From: Desulfobacterales bacterium | Lineage (GTDB): Bacteria; Desulfobacterota; Desulfobacteria; Desulfobacterales; JAHEIW01 | Direction: 5' to 3' | Length of the DNA: 44,878 nt | NCBI GenBank assembly: GCA_050122495.1 | Contig: JASFIU010000001.1 | Location: 1-44,878, forward strand | In this document: piece after piece, positions 3,342 through 35,355 of the stretch | How the letters are laid out: the number at the start of each line of letters is the position of its first letter | Position numbering within the stretch: the stretch's first letter is position 1 | Program-made: the position numbers and the translations under genes | The notes under the pieces: model-generated | Seen by the model: only the letters and a program-made list of their open reading frames with translations | Told to the model about the DNA's origin: nothing | Databases searched by the model: none

Positions 3342-3361
3342 CGCGATTCTTTTAAAAAAGC

Positions 3362-3400
3362 TTGACAATGTATTTTCAGCCTGCTACTCAGTAGGATAAT
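3362..3400 (+). promoter_or_regulatory. Candidate promoter region for the ilv leader transcript (weak call)
   Basis: A perfect TTGACA sits at 3362-3367 and GATAAT at 3395-3400. They are 27 nt apart, so they cannot form one canonical sigma70 promoter. The hexamer at the 17-nt position is TACTCA. This is position-based only. Confidence 0.25.
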
Positions 3401-3420
3401 TTCAAATTTGATGGATCACT

Positions 3421-3513
3421 ATGAATACCGTTAGCGCCATTAGAAACCTTATTAGCCTTATTCTCGTACTCGTCAGCGGAATAATTATTGTCCGCGGCGA
3501 GCAAAGGGGTTGA
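3421..3513 (+). CDS. Branched-chain-amino-acid-rich leader peptide (30 aa) of an ilv attenuator
   Basis: ATG..TGA translates to MNTVSAIRNLISLILVLVSGIIIVRGEQRG, with 14 of 30 residues Ile/Leu/Val. There is a dense run LISLILVLVSGIIIV (3448-3492). It lies directly upstream of a strong intrinsic terminator and of ilvBNC-cimA-leuA. Confidence 0.55.
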   Translation: MNTVSAIRNLISLILVLVSGIIIVRGEQRG

Positions 3514-3550
3514 TAATGGCCTAACCGAATCATTCAAATTCAAAATAAAA

Positions 3551-3588
3551 ACCGTTATCAGCCCCGAGGCTGGTAACGGTTTTTTTTA
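3551..3588 (+). terminator. Intrinsic terminator (attenuator terminator of the ilv leader)
   Basis: A 13-bp stem pairs ACCGTTATCAGCC (3551-3563) with GGCTGGTAACGGT (3568-3580), including one G.U pair. The loop is CCGA and a T8 run follows. An alternative pairing of 3510-3519 (overlapping the leader stop codon) with 3552-3561 could act as antiterminator. Confidence 0.7.
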
Positions 3589-3605
3589 TGCGCTTTTGAG
3601 ATAGG

Positions 3606-3873
3606 TTCTAGTGTTGTGTCCCACAAGTAATTTGCAAAACATCGTCCTGTTTTTAGGTTACAGGTTTCGGATGATCAGAATTTAAAGGTGTCAGTGTTCA
3701 GGTGTCAGGTGTCAGGGCGATGGAGACGCATCGAATTCTCCCCCTGTCATCTGTTTGCTGACACCTGAACACTGACACCTGAAACCGCATAGATTATGTT
3801 GTTTAAAGAACTTAACTGAACACAAATATACCAAACGACTTTGGTAACATTTTTGTGGGACACAACACTAGAA
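3606..3873. repeat. Nested inverted-repeat element (21-bp outer IR, 23-bp inner heptamer IR) in the ilvB 5' UTR
   Basis: The outer IR is perfect: TTCTAGTGTTGTGTCCCACAA at 3606-3626 against its reverse complement at 3853-3873. The inner IR is also perfect: AGGTGTCAGTGTTCAGGTGTCAG at 3686-3708 against 3758-3780. The arms have 7-nt periodicity (AGGTGTC units). Confidence 0.8.
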
Positions 3874-3917
3874 TTATTAATCCGTAACCGATCGTAAATT
3901 GTAAAGAGGTGAACGAA

Positions 3918-5610: not shown

Positions 5611-5714
5611 GGTTACCGGTTACGGGTTGCGCGTTGCGAGTTAAAAAAAATCTGACCGGATTGATTGCAGCCGCGTTAATTTGAAACCCGCAACTCGCAA
5701 CGCGTAACGCGTAA
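5611..5714. repeat. Heptamer-armed hairpin element (GGTTRCG units) between ilvB and ilvN
   Basis: The left arm 5611-5642 reads GGTTACC GGTTACG GGTTGCG CGTTGCG AGTT. The right arm 5684-5714 reads AAACCCG CAACTCG CAACGCG TAACGCG TAA. An 11-bp perfect pairing joins 5632-5642 to 5692-5702 and extends to about 23 bp with a few mismatches. Confidence 0.75.
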
Positions 5715-6217: not shown

Positions 6218-6360
6218 TTTTCAATTCCTAAATGGCTATTTTTTCACTGGGCCGCGTTCTCCGCGGATTTTAGACCTCAACGTACCAAAAGTACGCCTCG
6301 GCCTAAAATCCTTGTGCGGCCTTACCCAGCAAAAAAATATCTCATTTATGAATTGAAAAC
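6217..6360. repeat. 144-nt imperfect palindrome between ilvN and ilvC
   Basis: Outer arms are GTTTTCAATTCCTAAATG (6217-6234) and CATTTATGAATTGAAAAC (6343-6360), matching at 17 of 18 positions. Inner pairs include GGATTTTAG (6265-6273) with CTAAAATCC (6303-6311). The apex is CGTAC-CAAAA-GTACG (6281-6295). It shares the 15-mer TTCAATTCCTAAATG with 28755-28769. Confidence 0.7.
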
Positions 6361-7484: not shown

Positions 7485-7624
7485 GAGCGCCTCACTTTCA
7501 GCGAGACTTGAAGAGCGGCTCTCACGAGCTTTGAGGAGCGGCCTTTTAGGCCTCGAGGATTTCAAAAAGCCTTGCCTAAAGCGAAGCGCTCCTAAAAAGA
7601 AGTGCTCTTAAAGCGAAGCGCTCA
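7485..7624. repeat. Inverted element with three tandem 16-mers between ilvC and cimA
   Basis: The right arm has three 16-mers: TAAAGCGAAGCGCTCC (7577-7592), TAAAAAGAAGTGCTCT (7593-7608) and TAAAGCGAAGCGCTCA (7609-7624). The left arm carries inverted GAGCG[CG]C..CTTT units starting at 7485, 7513 and 7536. The centre is GGCC-TTTTA-GGCC (7540-7552). Confidence 0.65.
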
Positions 7625-9265: not shown

Positions 9266-9349
9266 CTAGAATTGGCATGACTTCAAATCTAACAAAAAGG
9301 CCATCACGGCCCAAGGAGACGTCATTTGAAAAGGACAGAAGGAAACAAT

Positions 9350-9383
9350 GCCGCAGGCCCACCGCTGATCCGGTGCCTGCGGC
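9350..9383 (+). other. GC-rich stem-loop in the cimA-leuA spacer
   Basis: GCCGCAGGC (9350-9358) pairs with GCCTGCGGC (9375-9383). ACCG (9361-9364) pairs with CGGT (9371-9374). There is a 2-nt bulge and the loop is CTGATC. No T-run follows. Confidence 0.5.
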
Positions 9384-9480
9384 GTATGCTCCCGGTATTT
9401 AAGGTCAGAGCGTTAATTGGCTAAATAGTTGATTCGGTAAAGACAACTGAATTACCAAACTACAAGGGAGTATAAATAAA

Positions 9481-11019: not shown

Positions 11020-11027
11020 ATCGGAAG

Positions 11028-11120
11028 CGTTACGGGTTGCGCGTTTCGAATTGCGGGTTAATTACTAAAAAAAGCATTATTTCGTACTAACGCGCAACAC
11101 GTAACCCGTAACACGCAACG
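11028..11120. repeat. Heptamer-armed hairpin element (GGTTRCG units) between convergent leuA and pyrD
   Basis: The left arm reads CGTTACG GGTTGCG CGTTTCG AATTGCG GGTT (11028-11059). The right arm reads TAACGCG CAACACG TAACCCG TAACACG CAACG (11088-11120). It shares an identical 17-mer, GTTACGGGTTGCGCGTT (11029-11045), with 5619-5635. Confidence 0.75.
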
Positions 11121-16001: not shown

Positions 16002-16637
16002 ATGGCTAACACCACACGTCGCCTAATTCCGGTCGGTTTGCAAAATGGCTTCTTAAAATTGCTGACGCCGTTGATTAAAATGCTGACGAAATGGGGCTTA
16101 AGCCCAAACAGCTTTACACTGGCCGGTCTGATTATCACATCCTTGGCAGCGATTGCATTTATCATGGGCTATTTGCGCCTGGGCGGTTTTTTAGTATTGC
16201 TGGGCGGTTTATGCGATACAATTGACGGCAGTTTAGCCCGGCAGGCCAATAAAGCCACCCATTTCGGGGCCCTGTTTGACTCGGCTGTGGATCGCTATTC
16301 CGAATTTGTCATGTTTTTTGGTATTGTTGTGTATTTCATCATGTTAAAAGATTACCCGATTTCAGTGGTTGCTTTTTTTGCGCTATGCGGGTCGATTATG
16401 GTCAGTTATTCCCGGGCAAGGGCTGAGAGCCTTGGATTTGATTCGATGGTCGGCATCATGCAACGTCCGGAGCGCATTGTCTTTTTAGGGCTGGGTGCTT
16501 TAATACATCCGGTGGCGTTAAAAATTGCCATCTGGCTGGTGGCTATTTTTGCAAATTTTACGGCCTTACAACGAATCCGTCATGCCCATAAACAAAGTGA
16601 AACTGAATTCGAACGCAAACCGATAACCGAATCTTAG
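16002..16637 (+). CDS. CDP-alcohol phosphatidyltransferase family membrane protein
   Basis: The signature D-G-x2-A-R-x8-G-x3-D-x3-D is seen as DTIDGSLARQANKATHFGALFDSAVDR. There are multiple hydrophobic helices. Confidence 0.85.
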   Translation: MANTTRRLIPVGLQNGFLKLLTPLIKMLTKWGLSPNSFTLAGLIITSLAAIAFIMGYLRLGGFLVLLGGLCDTIDGSLARQANKATHFGALFDSAVDRYSEFVMFFGIVVYFIMLKDYPISVVAFFALCGSIMVSYSRARAESLGFDSMVGIMQRPERIVFLGLGALIHPVALKIAIWLVAIFANFTALQRIRHAHKQSETEFERKPITES

Positions 16638-16687: not shown

Positions 16688-16835
16688 GGTTTCAGGTGTT
16701 CCCGCCGCGGCGGGATTCAGGTGTCAGGATTCAAAGATTAAGGAATTCAGGAATTGAGGGATTTAAGAATTAGAATGATAGAATGCCTTCAATTCCTTTA
16801 TTCCTGAATTTATCTGACACCTGACACCTGAAACC
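16688..16835. repeat. CAGGTGT-heptamer hairpin element with conserved 52-nt core
   Basis: The left arm GGTTTCAGGTGT / TTCAGGTGTCAGG (16688-16728) is interrupted by a perfect 16-nt palindrome, TCCCGCCGCGGCGGGA (16700-16715). The right arm is CTGACAC CTGACAC CTGAAAC C (16814-16835). The core 16759-16810 matches 28725-28776 at about 45 of 52 positions by manual alignment. Confidence 0.8.
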
Positions 16836-16933: not shown

Positions 16934-17869
16934 ATGAAATTTGCCATACTGGGAACCGGCGTGATGGGCTGCGGATGGATTACCCAGTGCGCCATGAGCG
17001 GGCACAATGTCCACTGTTTTGATTCCAATGCCGCATCGGTGGCTGCCGTGACCGCAAATTGCGAAACACTGGCTGAAAAAGCGGCTCACAAATTTAAAAT
17101 CGATGACCCGGACTTCGGGATTAAAACAGCGCAAAAGATAAAAACCTATGAAAAAAAAGAAGATTTCATTGATGCAGCCAAAAGCTGCGATATTTTCTTT
17201 GAGGTCATCTTTGAGGATCTGGATCTCAAATGCGCGGTTCTGGCCGAAATCTTACCCCAGCTACCCCCAGATGTCTATTTCTGGTCCAATACCAGCAGTC
17301 TGGATATCGATATTTTGGCGAATGCCGGCGGCCGGCCCGCACGATCAATTGTGGCTCATGGCATGAATCCGGTGCCATTAATGCCCGGCGTTGAAATCGT
17401 GCCGGCCGCCCGAACATCGTCAGAAACGCTGGAATTTACCCGCAACGCACTGCTGGATATGAAAAAAGCACCGTTCCTGGCGCCTAACATTCCCGGCTTC
17501 TGGGTTAACCGGCTTCTTTTTCCGCAAATGCTGGATGCCATCCGCCTGCTTGAATTAGGAGAAATACAGGTTGAGGACGGGGATCTGGGCTTGACGACCT
17601 GTCTGGGCCATCCCCAGGGTGCCTTCAAATTATACGATTTTGCCAGCACACCCACCATTTTGAGAGTCGCCCTTGAAATGTACAAGGCCTCCAACGATCC
17701 ACGCTTCTATCCGCCCCTGATGCTGATGCGAATGGTAAAAAACGGCGATCACGGCGCCGGCAGCGGCAAAGGTTTCTATGATTGGAGCGATCCGCGCAAT
17801 CCCAGACCACGCAAGTTGTCCGAATATATGATCGGAAATGCGGCAGATATGACTGAAAGGGTCAAATAG
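16934..17869 (+). CDS. 3-hydroxyacyl-CoA dehydrogenase family protein
   Basis: The N-terminal Rossmann motif is KFAILGTGVMGCGW. The 311-aa length and overall pattern match the 3-hydroxybutyryl-CoA dehydrogenase family. Confidence 0.78.
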   Translation: MKFAILGTGVMGCGWITQCAMSGHNVHCFDSNAASVAAVTANCETLAEKAAHKFKIDDPDFGIKTAQKIKTYEKKEDFIDAAKSCDIFFEVIFEDLDLKCAVLAEILPQLPPDVYFWSNTSSLDIDILANAGGRPARSIVAHGMNPVPLMPGVEIVPAARTSSETLEFTRNALLDMKKAPFLAPNIPGFWVNRLLFPQMLDAIRLLELGEIQVEDGDLGLTTCLGHPQGAFKLYDFASTPTILRVALEMYKASNDPRFYPPLMLMRMVKNGDHGAGSGKGFYDWSDPRNPRPRKLSEYMIGNAADMTERVK

Positions 17870-21698: not shown

Positions 21699-21890
21699 AT
21701 GAAACCGGATTTAAAAAGTTTAGAAGATCGGCTGGACGAATTGGATGCAAAAATAGCAGAAGTCAAAAAGCGAATGCCGGCGCACTCAATCAAACCGCCG
21801 ATAATGATGGAGCTGTTTGAGCTCGAGGATGAAAGGAACCTGGTTGAAAAGCAAATTGTCCAGCTAGGGGAAAAACGGACTAAGACGTAA
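21699..21890 (+). CDS. Small charged, predicted coiled-coil protein (63 aa), function unknown
   Basis: The ATG ORF has a heptad-like pattern, LKSLEDRLDELDAKIAEVKK ... ELFELEDERNLVEKQIVQL. The RBS is weak (AGGAAAA). Confidence 0.45.
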   Translation: MKPDLKSLEDRLDELDAKIAEVKKRMPAHSIKPPIMMELFELEDERNLVEKQIVQLGEKRTKT

Positions 21891-21900
21891 ACTTGAGTGC

Positions 21901-22077
21901 GGGCGGGCCTGTCCGCCGTCTTGCCCGGCGTAGTCTTGACGAAGACGGAAGCTCGATAGGGCGAAGCCGGACCTGCCGCGGCGACTTGTCCGGCGAAGTT
22001 TTAACGAAGACGGAAGCTCGCCAGAGCGCCTGTCCTCCGAAGCATTCGAATGCGAAGGATGGAAAGACGGGCCTGCC
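21901..22077. repeat. GC-rich imperfect tandem repeat (about 65-bp period, 2 clear units plus a degenerate third)
   Basis: A 17-nt perfect direct repeat, ACGAAGACGGAAGCTCG, occurs at 21939-21955 and 22004-22020. It extends to about 31 nt (CCGGCG.AGT.TT.ACGAAGACGGAAGCTCG) with a few mismatches. A third unit, GAAAGACGGGCCTG, is at 22062-22075. Confidence 0.65.
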
Positions 22078-22102
22078 AAAAAAATTTCTGGAGGAGTAGA
22101 AG

Positions 22103-22288
22103 TTGGATCGTTGTATAAAACATCCGGATCGGGAAACTGCCTATGAATGCCTGAAGCACCAGGTTTACATGTGCCCGGACTGTCTGGACTGCCGCGATCC
22201 GGAAATATACTGTAAATTCCGGGAGTCGTGCACGATCTGGTTTTTGACAAAGAAAAACTTTGACGATGATGCAACGGACAAAAACTGA
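22103..22288 (+). CDS. Small Cys-rich (zinc-finger-like) protein, 61 aa
   Basis: The TTG start lies 6 nt after a strong GGAGGAG (22090-22096). There are 7 Cys and 2 His in the first 43 residues (CIKH..C..C..CPDCLDC..C..C). Confidence 0.5.
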   Translation: MDRCIKHPDRETAYECLKHQVYMCPDCLDCRDPEIYCKFRESCTIWFLTKKNFDDDATDKN

Positions 22289-22467
22289 GCAAAGCCCTTG
22301 TTGGATATTAAACCCTTCGTCCCGGATTTTGAGGTTCGGGGGGAAATAACGCTCGGGGGGCTGAAAGAAAAATCTGAAAATGCATCCACGACGCTAGCGG
22401 ACGGCAGATTCAATGATTAAACCGGGCTAACCCAATCGCTTTGTTTCAAAAGCACAGAAGGATAATA

Positions 22468-26040: not shown

Positions 26041-26117
26041 GGCCGTCCGTTGCCGGTTGTCAGTGGTCCGTTGTCGGGTCATTACCACGGACAACGGACC
26101 ACAAACAACGGACACTG
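26041..26117. repeat. CCGTTGT-heptamer hairpin element
   Basis: The left arm units are CCGTTGC CGGTTGT CAGTGGT CCGTTGT. The right arm units are ACAACGG ACCACAA ACAACGG. A 13-bp perfect stem pairs GTGGTCCGTTGTC (26063-26075) with GACAACGGACCAC (26090-26102). The 22-mer at 26054-26075 matches 34128-34149 at 20 of 22 positions. Confidence 0.75.
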
Positions 26118-26957: not shown

Positions 26958-27164
26958 AGAAATGCCTGAAATGCCTAAAATGAGCTAAAATGACTAAAGT
27001 TGAGGAATACTACCCGTCGGGAGCCTCCGGGTCGAACGATCATATTTACAATCAAAGATGGAGCGTCACGCGGCGCAGTTGTCGCGCTGCGCGAGCGACG
27101 CCATAATTTTAGGCATCTAAGATCATTTTATCCGCCACCGATCTTTGGCGGATTAGCTCATTTG
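26958..27164. repeat. Mosaic inverted-module element with AAATGMCTA repeats and a GC-rich hairpin
   Basis: The left side has tandem 9-10-mers, AAATGCCTG AAATGCCTA AAATGAGCTA AAATGACTA (26960-26996). Inverted copies on the right are ATTTTAGGCAT (27106-27116), TCATTTT (27123-27129) and TAGCTCATTT (27154-27163). A GC hairpin GCGTC...GACGC lies at 27063-27101. Confidence 0.6.
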
Positions 27165-27170
27165 TTGTTA

Positions 27171-28604
27171 TCATGTATTGATTGAAACGTCTGAAACCTG
27201 CCGCCAGTGGGCAATGGCGTTGGCATAATAGGCTAAGACATCGATTTCTTCAGGTACCGGACTGTAGAGCCCCCTTGACTCCCTCACAAGCCTTCTTAAT
27301 TGTAACATGTTTAAAGCGTTTAAAATAGACTCAACCCGGTTTCGGGGTGACACATACACATGCGCCCCGCGCGCCTGGAGTTCTTCAATAAGTTCGTTCG
27401 CCCGCGCCTCCACTTCAGGGGCATCCAGTCCCGCGTGGCCGGATTCCAGCATCACCGTGGCAACCAGGGAGATGGGCAGCGCCGGCATGACGCCCTTAAT
27501 CGCTCCCATGAGCCGATCGGCAAGTTTTTGGACGCTCAAAAACCGTTCCGCACGCTCCAATTTTGCGAAGTTGACATGATGGGCCTCACAATATTGCCTG
27601 ACGGACACATGCTTCCCAAAGTTTACGTAGGCATAACCAAATCGCTGCCAACGGCTCAATATCATCAGAATCAGGCTTTTCCAAATAAATCCCAGGGTCG
27701 TTTTGACGATGAACCAGAGGCTTCGTTTTTCGGCATCCGGATCCAATGCGCGTAACAAGCTTCGATCCTCTAAGGTTCTGTCATAATTTACCCCCACGGG
27801 TATAAATACGATATCTCGATCATTTTCAGGATCATAACTGCGTAACATATAATCGAGAAAGCCCAGTTTAGGTGGCCGCAGAAGTCCGTCACGACTTAAA
27901 CCCCCTTCTAGAAATACAGCCTGACAAACGCCTTCTTTGGTCGCCATATGAACATAGCGTTCCAAAACGCATCGATATAACGGATCACCGGAATTTCGCC
28001 GCACAAAAAACGCCCCCATCGCCCTGATAAGAGTTTGCAGAGGCCAAATTTTAGCCCACTCGCCGACGGCATACGACAGGGTTGTTTTTTCCGCGGCCAG
28101 AAATGCCACCAGAACATAATCCATGTTGCTGCGATGATTGATAACAAATACGACGGTGGATTCAGGATCAATGGCCGCAAATTGAGCATCATCCACAAGA
28201 CCAATACGCACGCGGTAAAGCAGCCGGGCAATTTTTTTGGCCATCCAATAACCAATCCGAAAATAAAGGTACGCATTAAATGACGGTACGATTTCCCGGG
28301 CATAGGTCATCACTTCCCTTTGAACAATCTCACGGGGACAATCGCGATCCAGTGCAGCTTCTTGAATGGCTTCAACGACCCTGGGATCATAAACCAGACG
28401 ATCAATCAAAACCTGTCGCTTGGTGAGCTGAAACGGTTTGATTTGAATATCCAACCGAGCGCTGATCTCATCGATCACACGATTGATGCGTCTTCTGATA
28501 AACCAGCGTGAACTGGGAATCAGAACCCGTTCCAAAACAGCCCACACGCATACGGCCAGCAAAAATACAAAAAGCCAGATCGGTATGTTGACTTGACCGC
28601 CCAT
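27171..28604 (-). CDS. Glycerol-3-phosphate/lysophospholipid acyltransferase (PlsB/GPAT-like)
   Basis: The acyltransferase HX4D motif is VINHRSNMDYVLV. FLEGGLSRDG (block III/IV-like) is present. There is an N-terminal TM helix. The length is 477 aa. Confidence 0.8.
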   Translation of the reverse strand: MGGQVNIPIWLFVFLLAVCVWAVLERVLIPSSRWFIRRRINRVIDEISARLDIQIKPFQLTKRQVLIDRLVYDPRVVEAIQEAALDRDCPREIVQREVMTYAREIVPSFNAYLYFRIGYWMAKKIARLLYRVRIGLVDDAQFAAIDPESTVVFVINHRSNMDYVLVAFLAAEKTTLSYAVGEWAKIWPLQTLIRAMGAFFVRRNSGDPLYRCVLERYVHMATKEGVCQAVFLEGGLSRDGLLRPPKLGFLDYMLRSYDPENDRDIVFIPVGVNYDRTLEDRSLLRALDPDAEKRSLWFIVKTTLGFIWKSLILMILSRWQRFGYAYVNFGKHVSVRQYCEAHHVNFAKLERAERFLSVQKLADRLMGAIKGVMPALPISLVATVMLESGHAGLDAPEVEARANELIEELQARGAHVYVSPRNRVESILNALNMLQLRRLVRESRGLYSPVPEEIDVLAYYANAIAHWRQVSDVSINT

Positions 28605-28650
28605 GAAGCATCCTTTCTCCTCTTAATTCAGTACCTCTCCATCGTGTTGC

Positions 28651-28832
28651 GTCCCACAAGTACCCAACAAAACACGGCCCTGCTTCAGGTTTCAGGTTTC
28701 GGGTGTCAGGGTTCAATGATTGATGGATTTAGGAATTAGCATGACAGAATACCTTCAATTCCTAAATGCCTGAATTCGCAACTTCCTATCTCTCTGCATC
28801 TTCCTGACACCTGAACACGGACACCTGACACC
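28651..28832. repeat. CAGGTGT-heptamer hairpin element with conserved 52-nt core (second full copy)
   Basis: The left module 28651-28703 is homologous to 3618-3670. The left arm reads CAGGTTT CAGGTTT CGGGTGT CAGGGTT (28686-28713). The core is 28725-28776. The right arm reads CTGACAC CTGAACA CGGACAC CTGACAC (28804-28831). Confidence 0.75.
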
Positions 28833-28865
28833 ATGAATATTTAATATCCCAAATGCAGTCACATC

Positions 28866-28894: not shown

Positions 28895-29015
28895 TACGTA
28901 TAAAACTAAAGCAGCACCCACTCGTCTGGCCCGGGTGATCCAACTGGTTTAGCGGTGCCAATCTCCGGATCAGGGTATTATAGGGCACCTATCGGAGAAT
29001 TCAAAGGGATTTTTG

Positions 29016-29789
29016 ATGGAACATGTAAACTCCGATGATTTCAACATAGAAGCGTCTTCTCCGGCTAAAGGTACGGCGGAGAAAGAAAAGGCCGAAAAAA
29101 CGCTCCGGCGCAACATCATTGCACAGTTGAAAACGAAAGCATTAAAGCGAAAACGGACGCCAGCTTCCTCTCAAATGATTTCGTCGTCAAAGCCGGAACG
29201 CTCGTTACCTTTGGGGCTTTCGAAGAAACGATTGCTTTTTGGCAGTGCCGGAATTATTTTTGTGATACTGATCGGGCTCGTTATTCACACCAGTTTTAAT
29301 AATAAGCGTCATTATTATCTGAAATCAGCAGCCGGTGCCGTGGAAATCTGGCAGGGAACCTTCTCACCGGGGGGAAAAAAGCGCATTCTGATTATGCCCG
29401 GAGTTCAGATTCCAGCAAAGATAAAAAAGGTTTATACAAAAGCGGAAGTTTATCCGCTGGCATTTGATTTTTATGTCAGCAAGGCGGATGCCTTGATGGA
29501 AGTGCCAGGCATGCCCGATTTTGTCGGCATCAAGTCTTATCTGAATAGAGCCCTTTTTTTTGCCACAACCCAAAGCCTGCGCCAGACAGCCGAGGCCCGA
29601 ATCAACCAAATTGATCGCATGATTCTTTTCTATAAGGCTGATGTGGCCGCGACCAAAGGCACCCGTGCCGGTCTTGAGGCGGCCCTTGATTATCTCGACC
29701 AGGTCGCCGAATTGAATCCCGATGAGATTGAAGCCGAGCTCATCGAAAAGAAAAAAGCAGCGATTCGTGAATTACTTAAAAGCTTATAA
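29016..29789 (+). CDS. Hypothetical single-pass membrane protein
   Basis: I prefer ATG 29016 (AAAGGGA 6 nt upstream). The N-terminus is basic and is followed by one TM helix (LLFGSAGIIFVILIGLVI). I recognise no family motif. It is the first gene before the ABC importer. Confidence 0.55.
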   Translation: MEHVNSDDFNIEASSPAKGTAEKEKAEKTLRRNIIAQLKTKALKRKRTPASSQMISSSKPERSLPLGLSKKRLLFGSAGIIFVILIGLVIHTSFNNKRHYYLKSAAGAVEIWQGTFSPGGKKRILIMPGVQIPAKIKKVYTKAEVYPLAFDFYVSKADALMEVPGMPDFVGIKSYLNRALFFATTQSLRQTAEARINQIDRMILFYKADVAATKGTRAGLEAALDYLDQVAELNPDEIEAELIEKKKAAIRELLKSL

Positions 29790-34122: not shown

Positions 34123-34211
34123 CAAGTCCGTTGTCAGTCGTCCGTTGTCCGTTGTTGAAAAACCGCAGATCAAATATCTGCTACGGACCACTAACAACAA
34201 TCAACGGACAC
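34123..34211. repeat. CCGTTGT-heptamer hairpin element between oppC-like and oppD-like genes
   Basis: The left arm reads CAAGT CCGTTGT CAGTCGT CCGTTGT CCGTTGT TG (34123-34157). The right arm reads CTACGG ACCACTA ACAACAA TCAACGG ACAC (34181-34211). A central 6-bp hairpin pairs GCAGAT with ATCTGC (34165-34181). Confidence 0.75.
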
Positions 34212-34235
34212 TTTCTAAAACCAAAAGGAAGATGA

Positions 34236-35252
34236 TTGTATAAAATGTCGGGCAAAAACGACATACTGCTTTCAGTTGAGGATCTGAAAGTGTACTTTCG
34301 CAGCGAAGATACGGTTGCCCGGGCTGTGGATGGGGTCAGTTTCGATGTGCGCCGGGAAGAAACCGTCTGTCTGGTGGGAGAGTCCGGTTGCGGCAAAACC
34401 GTCACCGCCCTTAGCGTAATGGGCCTGGTTCCCATTCCGCCCGGCGAAATTGCCGACGGCCGGGTTTTATATCGAGAAAAAAATTTGCTGGAATTCAATG
34501 ATACCGAAATGCAGCAAATCCGCGGCAATCAAATTGCCATGGTCTTCCAGGAACCCCTGACCTCTTTAAATCCAGTCTTTACCATTGGCGACCAGGTCGG
34601 CGAGGCCATCAGCACGCACGAAGATATTCCCGAGAACGAAGTCACCCAGCGCAGCGTGCAGCTATTAAGAGACGTCGGCATCGCGTCAGCGACAGATCGC
34701 CTCAGTGATTACCCCCACCAACTCAGCGGCGGGCAGCGTCAGCGCGTCATGATTGCCATGGCCCTGGCCTGCAGCCCGGACCTGATCATCGCTGACGAGC
34801 CCACCACGGCCCTGGATGTCACCGTGCAGGCTCAGATTTTGCGCCTGCTGGATTCAATTCAGAAATTACGCGCCATGTCGGTCTTGTATATCACCCACGA
34901 CCTGGGGGTGGTCTCAAAGGTCGCCGATCGCGTATGCGTCATGTATGCCGGTATCATCGTTGAACAGGGAAGCCGGCAAGATATTTTTAAAAGCTCAAAA
35001 CATCCTTACACCCAGGCGTTGCTGGCATCGCTTCCCAATCGAGAAAAAAGGGGGCAGCGACTCTATAGCATCCCGGGCACGGTGCCGAATCCGGCATATA
35101 AACCCAGCGGCTGTCCGTTTCATCCGCGCTGCCAGCACGCCATTCAAACCTGCCGGAAGCAATATCCGCGAATGTGCGGGTATGAAGATGGGCACCAGGC
35201 GCGCTGTCCGGTACTGTATGATGGCGGCAAGGAACATTGGAGCGAACATTGA
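34236..35252 (+). CDS. ABC transporter ATP-binding protein (DppD/OppD-like)
   Basis: Walker A is GESGCGKT, the signature is LSGGQRQR and Walker B is LIIADEPT. A C-terminal oligopeptide-transporter Cys motif is present. The start is ambiguous: TTG 34236 (AAGGAAG 5-6 nt upstream) or ATG 34245. Confidence 0.92.
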   Translation: MYKMSGKNDILLSVEDLKVYFRSEDTVARAVDGVSFDVRREETVCLVGESGCGKTVTALSVMGLVPIPPGEIADGRVLYREKNLLEFNDTEMQQIRGNQIAMVFQEPLTSLNPVFTIGDQVGEAISTHEDIPENEVTQRSVQLLRDVGIASATDRLSDYPHQLSGGQRQRVMIAMALACSPDLIIADEPTTALDVTVQAQILRLLDSIQKLRAMSVLYITHDLGVVSKVADRVCVMYAGIIVEQGSRQDIFKSSKHPYTQALLASLPNREKRGQRLYSIPGTVPNPAYKPSGCPFHPRCQHAIQTCRKQYPRMCGYEDGHQARCPVLYDGGKEHWSEH

Positions 35253-35355
35253 TTTTGGATTTTGGAATTTAGATTTTGGATCGAAACGATGTAAGTTGAT
35301 GCTTAGTCAATTAGTCGGCTGTTAAATCCAAAATCCGAGATCTAAAATCTAAAAT
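35251..35355. repeat. GATTTTG-heptamer hairpin element between the two ATPase genes
   Basis: The left arm reads GATTTTG GATTTTG GAATTTA GATTTTG GATC (35251-35282) and overlaps the stop codon at 35250-35252. The right arm reads AAATCC AAAATCC GAGATCT AAAATCT AAAAT (35324-35355). About 31 positions pair, with an internal loop and G.U pairs. Confidence 0.8.

Follow-up and report, generated by a model that had tools for sequence, protein, structure and literature searches.

Two similar elements, 148 and 149 nt long, lie at 16688–16835 and 28684–28832 of a 44,878-nt stretch of DNA from a Desulfobacterales bacterium (contig JASFIU010000001.1 of assembly GCA_050122495.1), the whole of which is here called the window. 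Are they small structured RNAs, or protein-recognition modules carried by a mobile hairpin, as a first-pass annotation of the sequence had proposed, or something else? [quoted passage not shown] The family is abundant, is not a singular RNA gene and is apparently undescribed.

The inner module of the family is a long imperfect hairpin, with arms of tandem octamers and a conserved apex; it can sit in an inverted heptamer shell, sometimes within a further inverted repeat. Module, shell and composite are each present in many copies, at unrelated intergenic sites of many genomes. The parts found in the window are listed here, along with a third element sharing the heptamer:

16688–16835, + strand: composite element, copy 1; an octamer hairpin module inside a shell of CAGGTGT heptamers.
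16688–16699, + strand: outer left arm, part 1, GGTTTCAGGTGT, with the conserved element terminus GGTTTCAGG.
16700–16715, no strand: perfect 16-nt GC palindrome TCCCGCCGCGGCGGGA, interrupting the left outer arm.
16716–16728, + strand: outer left arm, part 2, TTCAGGTGTCAGG.
16726–16771, + strand: left octamer arm, AGGATTCA AAGATTA AGGAATTC AGGAATTG AGGGATTT AAGAATT, tandem with period 8.
16772–16785, + strand: apex AGAATGATAGAATG, a subfamily variant of the family apex ...ATTAAAATCARYAGAATA.
16786–16810, + strand: right octamer arm, CCTTCAATTCC TTTATTCC TGAATT.
16814–16835, + strand: outer right arm, CTGACAC CTGACAC CTGAAACC.
28684–28832, + strand: composite element, copy 2; same composite type as copy 1.
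28644–28683, + strand: left flank of copy 2 (GTGTTGYGTCCCACAAGTA...), 76% identical to 3611–3652; half of a third, outermost shell.
28684–28711, + strand: outer left arm of copy 2, degenerate heptamers TTCAGGT TTCAGGT TTCGGGT GTCAGGG.
28712–28776, + strand: octamer module of copy 2 (left arm 28712–28737, apex 28738–28751, right arm 28752–28776).
28777–28802, + strand: decayed remainder of the right arm of copy 2, CGCAACTTCCTATCTCTCTGCATCTT, corresponding to TTCGCAATTCCTAAATTTGCCTG in better-preserved copies.
28803–28832, + strand: outer right arm of copy 2, CCTGACACCTGAACACGGACACCTGACACC.
3598–3875, no strand: third CAGGTGT element, in three layers, without the octamer core and with a unique centre.

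The homology of the two elements, as first annotated, is borne out: 45 of the 52 positions of their cores (16759–16810 and 28725–28776) are identical, and the likeness extends to 65 nt at 83% identity (28712–28776 against 16746–16810), the module of copy 2 matching the family profile with an nhmmer E value of 5e-18. The 52-nt core is part of an inner module of about 110 nt, itself composed of tandem octamers: AGGAATTC AGGAATTG AGGGATTT to the left of the centre, and the approximate complements TTCAATTCC TTTATTCC to its right. The idea of a conserved core inside variable arms holds in so far as a conserved unit is located within hairpin arms, but that unit is the same kind of tandem-repeat hairpin, one layer inward.

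The heptamer CAGGTGT is found 13 times in the window, where 2.5 occurrences are expected (none of 100 shuffled sequences reached 13), and ten of the 13 fall in three places, 3699–3781, 16693–16830 and 28807–28827. The arrays are inverted at all three, with + strand copies on the left and - strand copies on the right, so that the inverted brackets described around both cores do exist, the left arm of copy 2 being degenerate (CAGGTTT/CGGGTGT instead of CAGGTGT). Two is the right number for elements containing the core; a third CAGGTGT hairpin, devoid of it, lies at 3686–3786. The third element features an outer 34-nt inverted repeat (3606–3639/3840–3873) around CAGGTGT arms (3686–3716/3758–3786), and lies about 10 nt after a strong terminator; the left half of its outer repeat also precedes copy 2, at 28644–28683. 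The three elements (148, 149 and 278 nt) are non-coding, a reading frame being excluded by the unit period of 7–8, and fall within the MITE size range, below about 500 bp.

The palindrome TCCCGCCGCGGCGGGA is the longest perfect one in the window, folds by itself into a side hairpin in the structure predicted for copy 1, and has no second instance in the right arm or in about 880 kb of related loci. Its interpretation as a secondary insertion is reasonable because small palindromes inserted in arms recur in the family (TTCGCAATTAAGCGAAGCGAAT in many copies; another 16-nt GC palindrome, TGCCTGCCGGCAGGCA, in loci L069 and L110), but its exact sequence is unique and does not define a repeat family. 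Compared with better-preserved composites, copy 1 shows the addition of this palindrome and the loss of a TTCGCAATTCCTAAATTTG segment, while copy 2 shows a shortened left arm and a decayed right one. Predicted folds are far more stable than those of shuffled sequences for copy 1 (-73.7 kcal/mol, z = -8.8), copy 2 (-51.8 kcal/mol, z = -3.5) and the 3.7-kb hairpin (-69.4 kcal/mol, z = -6.4). The core stems originally proposed appear in the predicted structures, which pair in different registers in copies 1 and 2, because of the tandem-octamer repetition of the inner module.

The strongest evidence in the case comes from the same sites in close relatives, where all three CAGGTGT elements are absent: copies are gained or lost as DNA, and the relatives' sites are either empty or occupied by another hairpin. 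Copy 1 lies between a pgsA-like gene (16002–16637) and a 3-hydroxyacyl-CoA dehydrogenase (3HCDH) gene (16934–17869). The octamer core is present in none of 26 syntenic pgsA-like/3HCDH spacers (62–87% protein identity); the spacer of the closest relative measures 78 nt, against 296 nt in the window, and another relative (L127, 85%) carries a different hairpin, (CTGGCNN)n, at the same point, after a shared GAGTTCTTTA. At the 3.7-kb site, congeneric contigs of 88% nucleotide identity are without the whole of 3598–3875, and both flanks align. Copy 2 lies between a divergent plsB-like gene (27171–28604, - strand) and an open reading frame (ORF) at 29013–29789; in a relative whose sequence to either side is about 95% identical, 28628–28846 is replaced by 59 unrelated nucleotides. 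All these flanking genes are ordinary chromosomal genes; the PgsA-like protein belongs to a cluster of at least 90% identity with a member annotated to a Desulfobacterales bacterium.

In two other spacers of the operon region, ilvB–ilvN and leuA2–DHODH, the hairpins are orthologous and kept in relatives, differing by exact 7-nt unit indels, which occur even between contigs with identical TopA protein. The ilvN–ilvC, ilvC–leuA1 and DHODH–rSAM spacers contain different hairpins or repeats in the window and in relatives. Spacers are thus hot spots for the replacement of palindromic elements, and arms change by whole-unit slippage: steps of exact 7-nt units are seen, and arrays of up to 19 units.

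How widely the module is dispersed was evaluated by scanning one genome per GTDB species (185,579 species) for the pattern AGAATNCCTTCAATTCCTNNAT. An exact match over 19 bases was required, and counts are taken from the listed matches only. At least 119 stretches were matched, where by our own arithmetic about 4 are expected by chance. Nearly all listed matches come from metagenome-assembled genomes (MAGs) of Desulfobacterales or Desulfobacteraceae, often many per MAG, with the Olavius Delta-1 symbiont and Ca. Desulfaltia bathyphila among the carriers. For 96 of 124 listed matches, octamer architecture and apex are shared, as (NAGGRATT)n – GGRATTAAAATCARYAGAATWCC – TTCAATTCC(TAAATTCC)n; the other listed matches are mostly due to chance, and lie inside genes. 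Together with the empty orthologous sites, dispersal to unrelated loci in many genomes makes the annotation's suggestion of a mobile hairpin largely right.

The family hairpin is thus a left arm (NAGGRATT)n facing a right arm (AATYCCTN)n around the conserved apex, or, written as a strand pair, (GAGGGATT)n/(AATTCCTA)n. Within the unit, the six positions GGRATT are conserved and a single position, N, varies freely. The octamer hairpin is found without a shell or within differing shells, as listed:

(CAGGTGT)n shell around the octamer hairpin: twice in the window; L020, L037, L044, L047, L105, L117.
(GGCACAAA)n shell with a 16-nt terminal inverted repeat, GTAAYAGTTCAGCCAC: L006, L019, L045, L108 and others.
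(AAGTGAACTAAAGTGCC) shell: L008, L014, L033.

Identical junctions between shell and core are found in both window composites and in L037, L105, L020 and L117, and the GGCACAAA composite is present in several copies within one MAG. CAGGTGT shells also stand alone, as hairpins of 63–77 nt with ends GGTTTCAGG...CCTGAAACC; the terminus GGTTTCAGG is found in 14 CAGGTGT hairpins at other loci and in the composite alignment. Terminal inverted repeats with defined ends, as in MITEs, are therefore featured both by these 14 hairpins (GGTTTCAGGTGTC...GACACCTGAAACC) and by the second composite (GTAAYAGTTCAGCCAC). Arm arrays contain 1–19 units and vary independently on each arm, in the extreme case 19 on one arm against 4 on the opposite one. 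Co-variation of arm lengths was looked for and rejected: the numbers of units on the left and on the right show no positive correlation (Spearman -0.35, a value partly confounded by inserted modules).

The family profile, applied to 346 kb of independent, related metagenome contigs, found one clear copy (L172) and one weak one (L164), so that family density varies strongly between lineages. The clear copy (L172:1826–1954) is an octamer element of another subfamily, in opposite orientation, about 100 nt upstream of a 3HCDH orthologue in a different organism; the upstream neighbour of that gene is unlike the one in the window, and the position is probably a coincidence. Within one wetland sequencing run, DNA word depth was 636 over the octamer part and about 10 in the flanks, indicating that the octamer repeat is very abundant in that wetland community. 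The same strain, with an identical 16.7-kb spacer, is present in three other metagenome assemblies, where two short-read contigs (L002 and L003) stop at window positions 16698 and 16838, that is, at copy 1: these assemblies are broken by the repeat. Plasmid and phage collections gave no match to the elements, and in the literature library searched, sequence strings gave only chance primer matches and no paper containing these sequences.

A conserved module of about 85 nt, TTAGACCYATGTCCAATTTTCATGCAAT...ATGACGAGGTCTG, with inverted ends AGACC/GGTCT, abuts one octamer-hairpin subfamily in several genomes. It was observed at L039:5330, L049:5283, L070, L102:4475, L114:6410 and L171:2137, in the last case in the absence of the octamer hairpin, and could be another small element or an RNA.

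Genomic localization is almost exclusively intergenic (96 of 97 copies among the matches listed). Within the same set, 43 copies are co-oriented with both neighbours and 17 are antisense to both (binomial p = 0.001), while another 17 lie between divergent (9) or convergent (8) genes. The genes flanking the window copies recur beside the element at none of the 119 listed genome loci. Neither window element contains a terminator-like site, no GC-rich stem followed by a T run being found. A sigma-70 promoter inside the element was considered and rejected: the spacings found by eye (11, 19 and 20 nt) are unfit, and a scan gave nothing above shuffled sequences.

The arms show a strand asymmetry, too. 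Left arms contain GGGATT 184 times and GGAATT 151 times; right arms contain AATCCC 51 times and AATTCC 252 times. The resulting excess of G opposite T creates G·U pairs on one strand only. RNA folding is better on the oriented strand for 69 of 91 copies (mean difference 6 kcal/mol; p = 3e-7), and the strand difference amounts to -8.1 kcal/mol for co-oriented and -2.0 kcal/mol for anti-oriented copies (p = 0.015). Orientation bias and G·U asymmetry suggest that copies are filtered at the transcript level. A systematic scan of all related loci, with a minimum arm length of 20 nt and a minimum complementarity of 80%, found 180 hairpins, of which 97 are tandem-periodic, mostly with period 8 or 7, and belong to many unit families. 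In the 5' arm, G exceeds C in 81 periodic hairpins and falls short of it in 11 (38 and 11 outside the octamer family), exceptions being the GGCACAAA and AACGTCC families; for non-periodic hairpins the split is 24 to 16. Copies within one family not being independent, this bias is a lead and not a statistic. Rho binds C-rich RNA at rut sites, and one may speculate that a G-rich arm coming first, with a C-poor transcribed strand, keeps such RNA from it.

In an alignment of 65 copies, evaluated over a 27-pair helix, 81% of cells are paired, yet covariation is absent: the score is 0.087, against 0.090 in shuffled alignments, 359 of 500 of which score at least as high. The R:Y position shows G·U or A-U against a near-invariant T, G-C never being seen at one such pair, and at the free N:N position a G·A mismatch prevails. 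Pairing thus belongs to the palindromic consensus and is not upheld by compensatory changes. Rfam gave no window match at the gathering threshold, and at a permissive E value the element matched only miRNA and snoRNA models, at chance level. Two wetland metatranscriptome runs contain few contigs near copy 1, along with repeat-derived fragments bearing octamer arrays from unassigned copies; a contig from the Olavius-symbiont metatranscriptome begins in the upstream gene, enters the L105 hairpin for about 40 nt and there turns back on itself. Some short DNA contigs jump from 16713, 16729 or 16755 to 16814, without being attributable to this locus. CsrA-type ANGGA arrays, G-quadruplexes in (GAGGGATT)n and telomere-like end addition were set aside from sequence alone; for part of these ideas the required motifs are missing from the window copies.

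The elements would spread by copy-and-paste or by recombination into AT-rich intergenic hot spots; new ones would often land inside a palindrome already there or next to it, and the nesting would result from this. Within transcribed operons, an element would fold as a long mRNA stem-loop, and which copies and orientations persist, as tolerated and possibly mildly useful structures, may depend on selection acting on this RNA and not on a dedicated function. Any role would be, at most, that of a generic intercistronic hairpin, such as an exonuclease barrier or an RNase III site.

Several observations weigh against this interpretation. The flanks of 14 copies contain no consistent target-site duplication, only A|...|T, and none that is clean emerges from the filled/empty comparisons at the 3.7-kb and 28.7-kb sites; filled and empty sites give no clean junction alignment, and their flanks differ too. 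Within the 8-kb locus slices of the MAGs, no transposase or other mobilising protein was identified. An autonomous long form was sought in L021, where inverted half-arrays 2.7 kb apart, the only long pair of this kind seen, enclose ordinary genes (ankyrin-repeat and FMN-reductase) and no transposase; this candidate was rejected. Conservation of part of the apex and of the first right-arm unit is fixed by the search pattern itself; the left half of the apex, outside the pattern, is conserved too. Orientation bias and strand asymmetry could derive from master copies instead of selection. The RNA evidence is thin, coming from unstranded, assembled contigs alone, in which no transcript ends can be read. 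Finally, with copy 2 placed between divergent genes and the 3.7-kb element just past a terminator, transcription of every copy cannot be assumed.

Among the alternatives, the one that survives best, although we regard it as unlikely, is that the arrays are binding sites for a protein, which could be nucleoid-associated, a global regulator or a transposase, one unit per 7–8 nt, paired arrays on opposite strands binding an oligomer that would bend or bridge DNA. A proposal of this kind was made by Aklujkar et al. (2009, PMC2700814) for Geobacter metallireducens. That paper, in the part concerning these sites, describes 24, 21 and 8 pairs of tandem octa-, nona- and heptanucleotide sites, composed of 3–5 units on opposite strands at variable distance, intergenic, some belonging to two classes; binding of IHF/HU or of a global regulator was guessed, and ISGme8/9 is inserted at a fixed distance in some. 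The architecture of the present arrays resembles that of these class 1–3 sites. Conservation of GGRATT within a unit having a free N, and arms not kept complementary, fit recognition of the unit better than pairing. The family apex AATCAATAGAATA differs by one mismatch from the IHF consensus, WATCAANNNNTTR: a lead for protein binding, not a test of it, and the window copies lack an IHF-like apex. The many unrelated unit sequences in one genome, moreover, would demand many proteins, or one without sequence specificity; arrays of 1–19 units, independent on the two arms, are hardly expected of such sites, and they are absent at orthologous sites of close relatives having the same genes, with no conserved regulon attached to them. 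For the Geobacter proposal, the passages of its papers that deal with the sites give no experimental test.

A broader possibility, to which we attach a low probability, is that the arrays are the product or the substrate of one dedicated system common to Desulfobacterales and Geobacter, and not mere selfish DNA. It might consist of an array-binding or array-building protein, or of a machinery for hairpin-targeted insertion. It is brought to mind by the G-rich arm mostly coming first, the conserved apex, the nesting and the rapid replacement of hairpins at the same point; if it exists, it would give nearly every operon spacer a long hairpin modulating the fate of the transcript.

Equally improbable, in our estimate, is a local origin of each hairpin, slippage multiplying a unit in one arm and intramolecular template switching copying it to the other. 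The exact unit indels between closely related contigs, the one-armed expansions, the many different units at different sites and the different hairpins at one site in related lineages are all as this would predict. Slippage accounts for the growth of arms, but not for dispersal: among the matches listed, about 96 unrelated loci, spread over dozens of genomes, carry the same module and apex, shell/core junctions are identical at non-orthologous sites, and whole blocks of 150–280 nt are present or absent between relatives at 88–95% identity. Nor are the arms homogenised to complementarity, contrary to what template switching predicts.

Very improbable is a structured cis-regulatory RNA or small RNA gene with a functional core, such as a protein-sequestering or processing signal: strong predicted folds, an apex conserved across many genomes, orientation bias, G·U asymmetry favouring one RNA strand, and the many copies stopping a few tens of nucleotides before a downstream start codon would suit it, but the Rfam and covariation searches that the annotation had called for gave nothing meaningful, no promoter or terminator is associated, contexts are varied, antisense copies and copies between divergent or convergent genes included, neighbouring genes are unrelated, 26 relatives are without the element upstream of the same gene, and the window copies fold in different registers.

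The Geobacter paired sites are the closest precedent for the family: both feature at least 3–5 tandem units of 7–9 nt, paired on opposite strands, intergenic and multi-copy, and both differ between sister species. In G. bemidjiensis, multicopy sequences occupy 12% of intergenic regions and are non-randomly clustered (PMC2996986). The units are not the same (in Geobacter, GTTGCTYN, TCTCCGTS[Y] and MTYCTGA; in the present family, NAGGRATT and CAGGTGT), the orders are Geobacterales and Desulfobacterales, respectively, and the ISGme8/9 association is not seen in the present family. A conserved apex and the nesting of several shells, both present here, are not described in the main text of PMC2700814 as far as it concerns the sites. 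In kind, the family agrees with these sites; its units differ from theirs, and so does the order in which it occurs.

REP/BIME/REPIN sequences of Enterobacteria and Pseudomonas, compared on the basis of established knowledge and of PMC2817692, PMC3116915 and PMC3733652, are likewise short intergenic palindromes in many copies, built of mosaic modules. They are often located within operons and co-transcribed as mRNA hairpins, generate no target-site duplication and are targets for other insertions. REPs have GC-rich stems of 20–40 nt, tagged with GTAG or CGTC at one end, and go together with RAYT (Y1) transposases, whereas the present family has AT-rich arms of tandem 7–8-nt units, ends GGTTTCAGG and no GTAG tag. 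Bacterial MITEs (Correia/NEMIS; a Porphyromonas gingivalis MITE with an internal minisatellite, PMC4596501) are non-coding, 100–300 nt long, and share with the family terminal inverted repeats, multiple copies at unrelated loci, presence/absence polymorphism between relatives and possible internal tandem repeats. Differences from MITEs are the lack of any detected target-site duplication and, within the locus slices, of any detected parent insertion sequence with matching ends, and 'terminal repeats' that are tandem arrays of variable length. The STRR of cyanobacteria and, in Beggiatoaceae, the TAACTGA repeats (MacGregor 2015, PMC4679880) are tandem 7-nt units, abundant between genes, often near start codons, whose spread is unexplained; they are direct arrays only (one inverted case among 170 sets was counted by MacGregor), unlike the inverted pairs forming long hairpins described here, and are related to them in unit size only.

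For annotation, it matters that such elements fill a large share of the intergenic spacers of environmentally dominant sulfate reducers; for evolution, that they turn over faster than the surrounding genes. A catalogue would aid MAG assembly and strain typing, and prevent mislabelling as small-RNA genes. Should a binding protein or a mobilising enzyme exist, hundreds of natural variants are available to find it with, and the G-rich-arm-first bias and one-strand G·U asymmetry are testable hints of transcription shaping repeat survival.

At least nine hairpins with arms of tandem 7–10-nt units are present in the 45 kb of the window:

3686–3786: CAGGTGT unit.
5612–5714: GTTRCGN unit.
11027–11119: GTTRCGN unit.
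16688–16835: composite (copy 1).
26045–26114: GTCCGTT unit.
26975–27129: unit of about 10 nt.
28684–28832: composite (copy 2).
34126–34212: GTCCGTT unit.
35251–35355: GATTTTG unit.

Those at 5.6 and 11 kb are kept at the same sites in relatives of 88% identity, again with differences of exact 7-nt units. A lone motif resembling a right octamer arm, TTTCAATTCCTAAATGGC, lies at 6219–6240, directly after ilvN, and is kept in relatives as TTTCAATCCCTAAATGGC; it may be what is left of an old element, or have arisen by chance. The ilvC–leuA spacer contains, at 7575–7623, 3.1 copies of the 16-nt tandem repeat CCTAAAGCGAAGCGCT, where relatives have a (GCATGGC)n heptamer hairpin.

Some other features of the window were observed. 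Between topA and ilvB, a hydrophobic 30-codon ORF, MNTVSAIRNLISLILVLVSGIIIVRGEQRG, is located at 3421–3513 (flanks 3360–3597), with a TTGACA-type promoter-like site upstream and a strong stem followed by a T8 terminator at about 3553–3590; the block is near-identical in relatives that are otherwise 88% identical to the window. The leuA1–leuA2 spacer (9290–9400) is well kept over about 150 nt in the 88% relatives and includes a GC-rich stem, GCCGCAGGC...GCCTGCGGC, which could be a leader or an attenuator; it has no Rfam match at gathering score. Finally, a 50-nt direct repeat (21914–21963 and 21979–22028; 82% identity, 65 nt apart) is found in or beside the ORF at 21864–22292 on the - strand.

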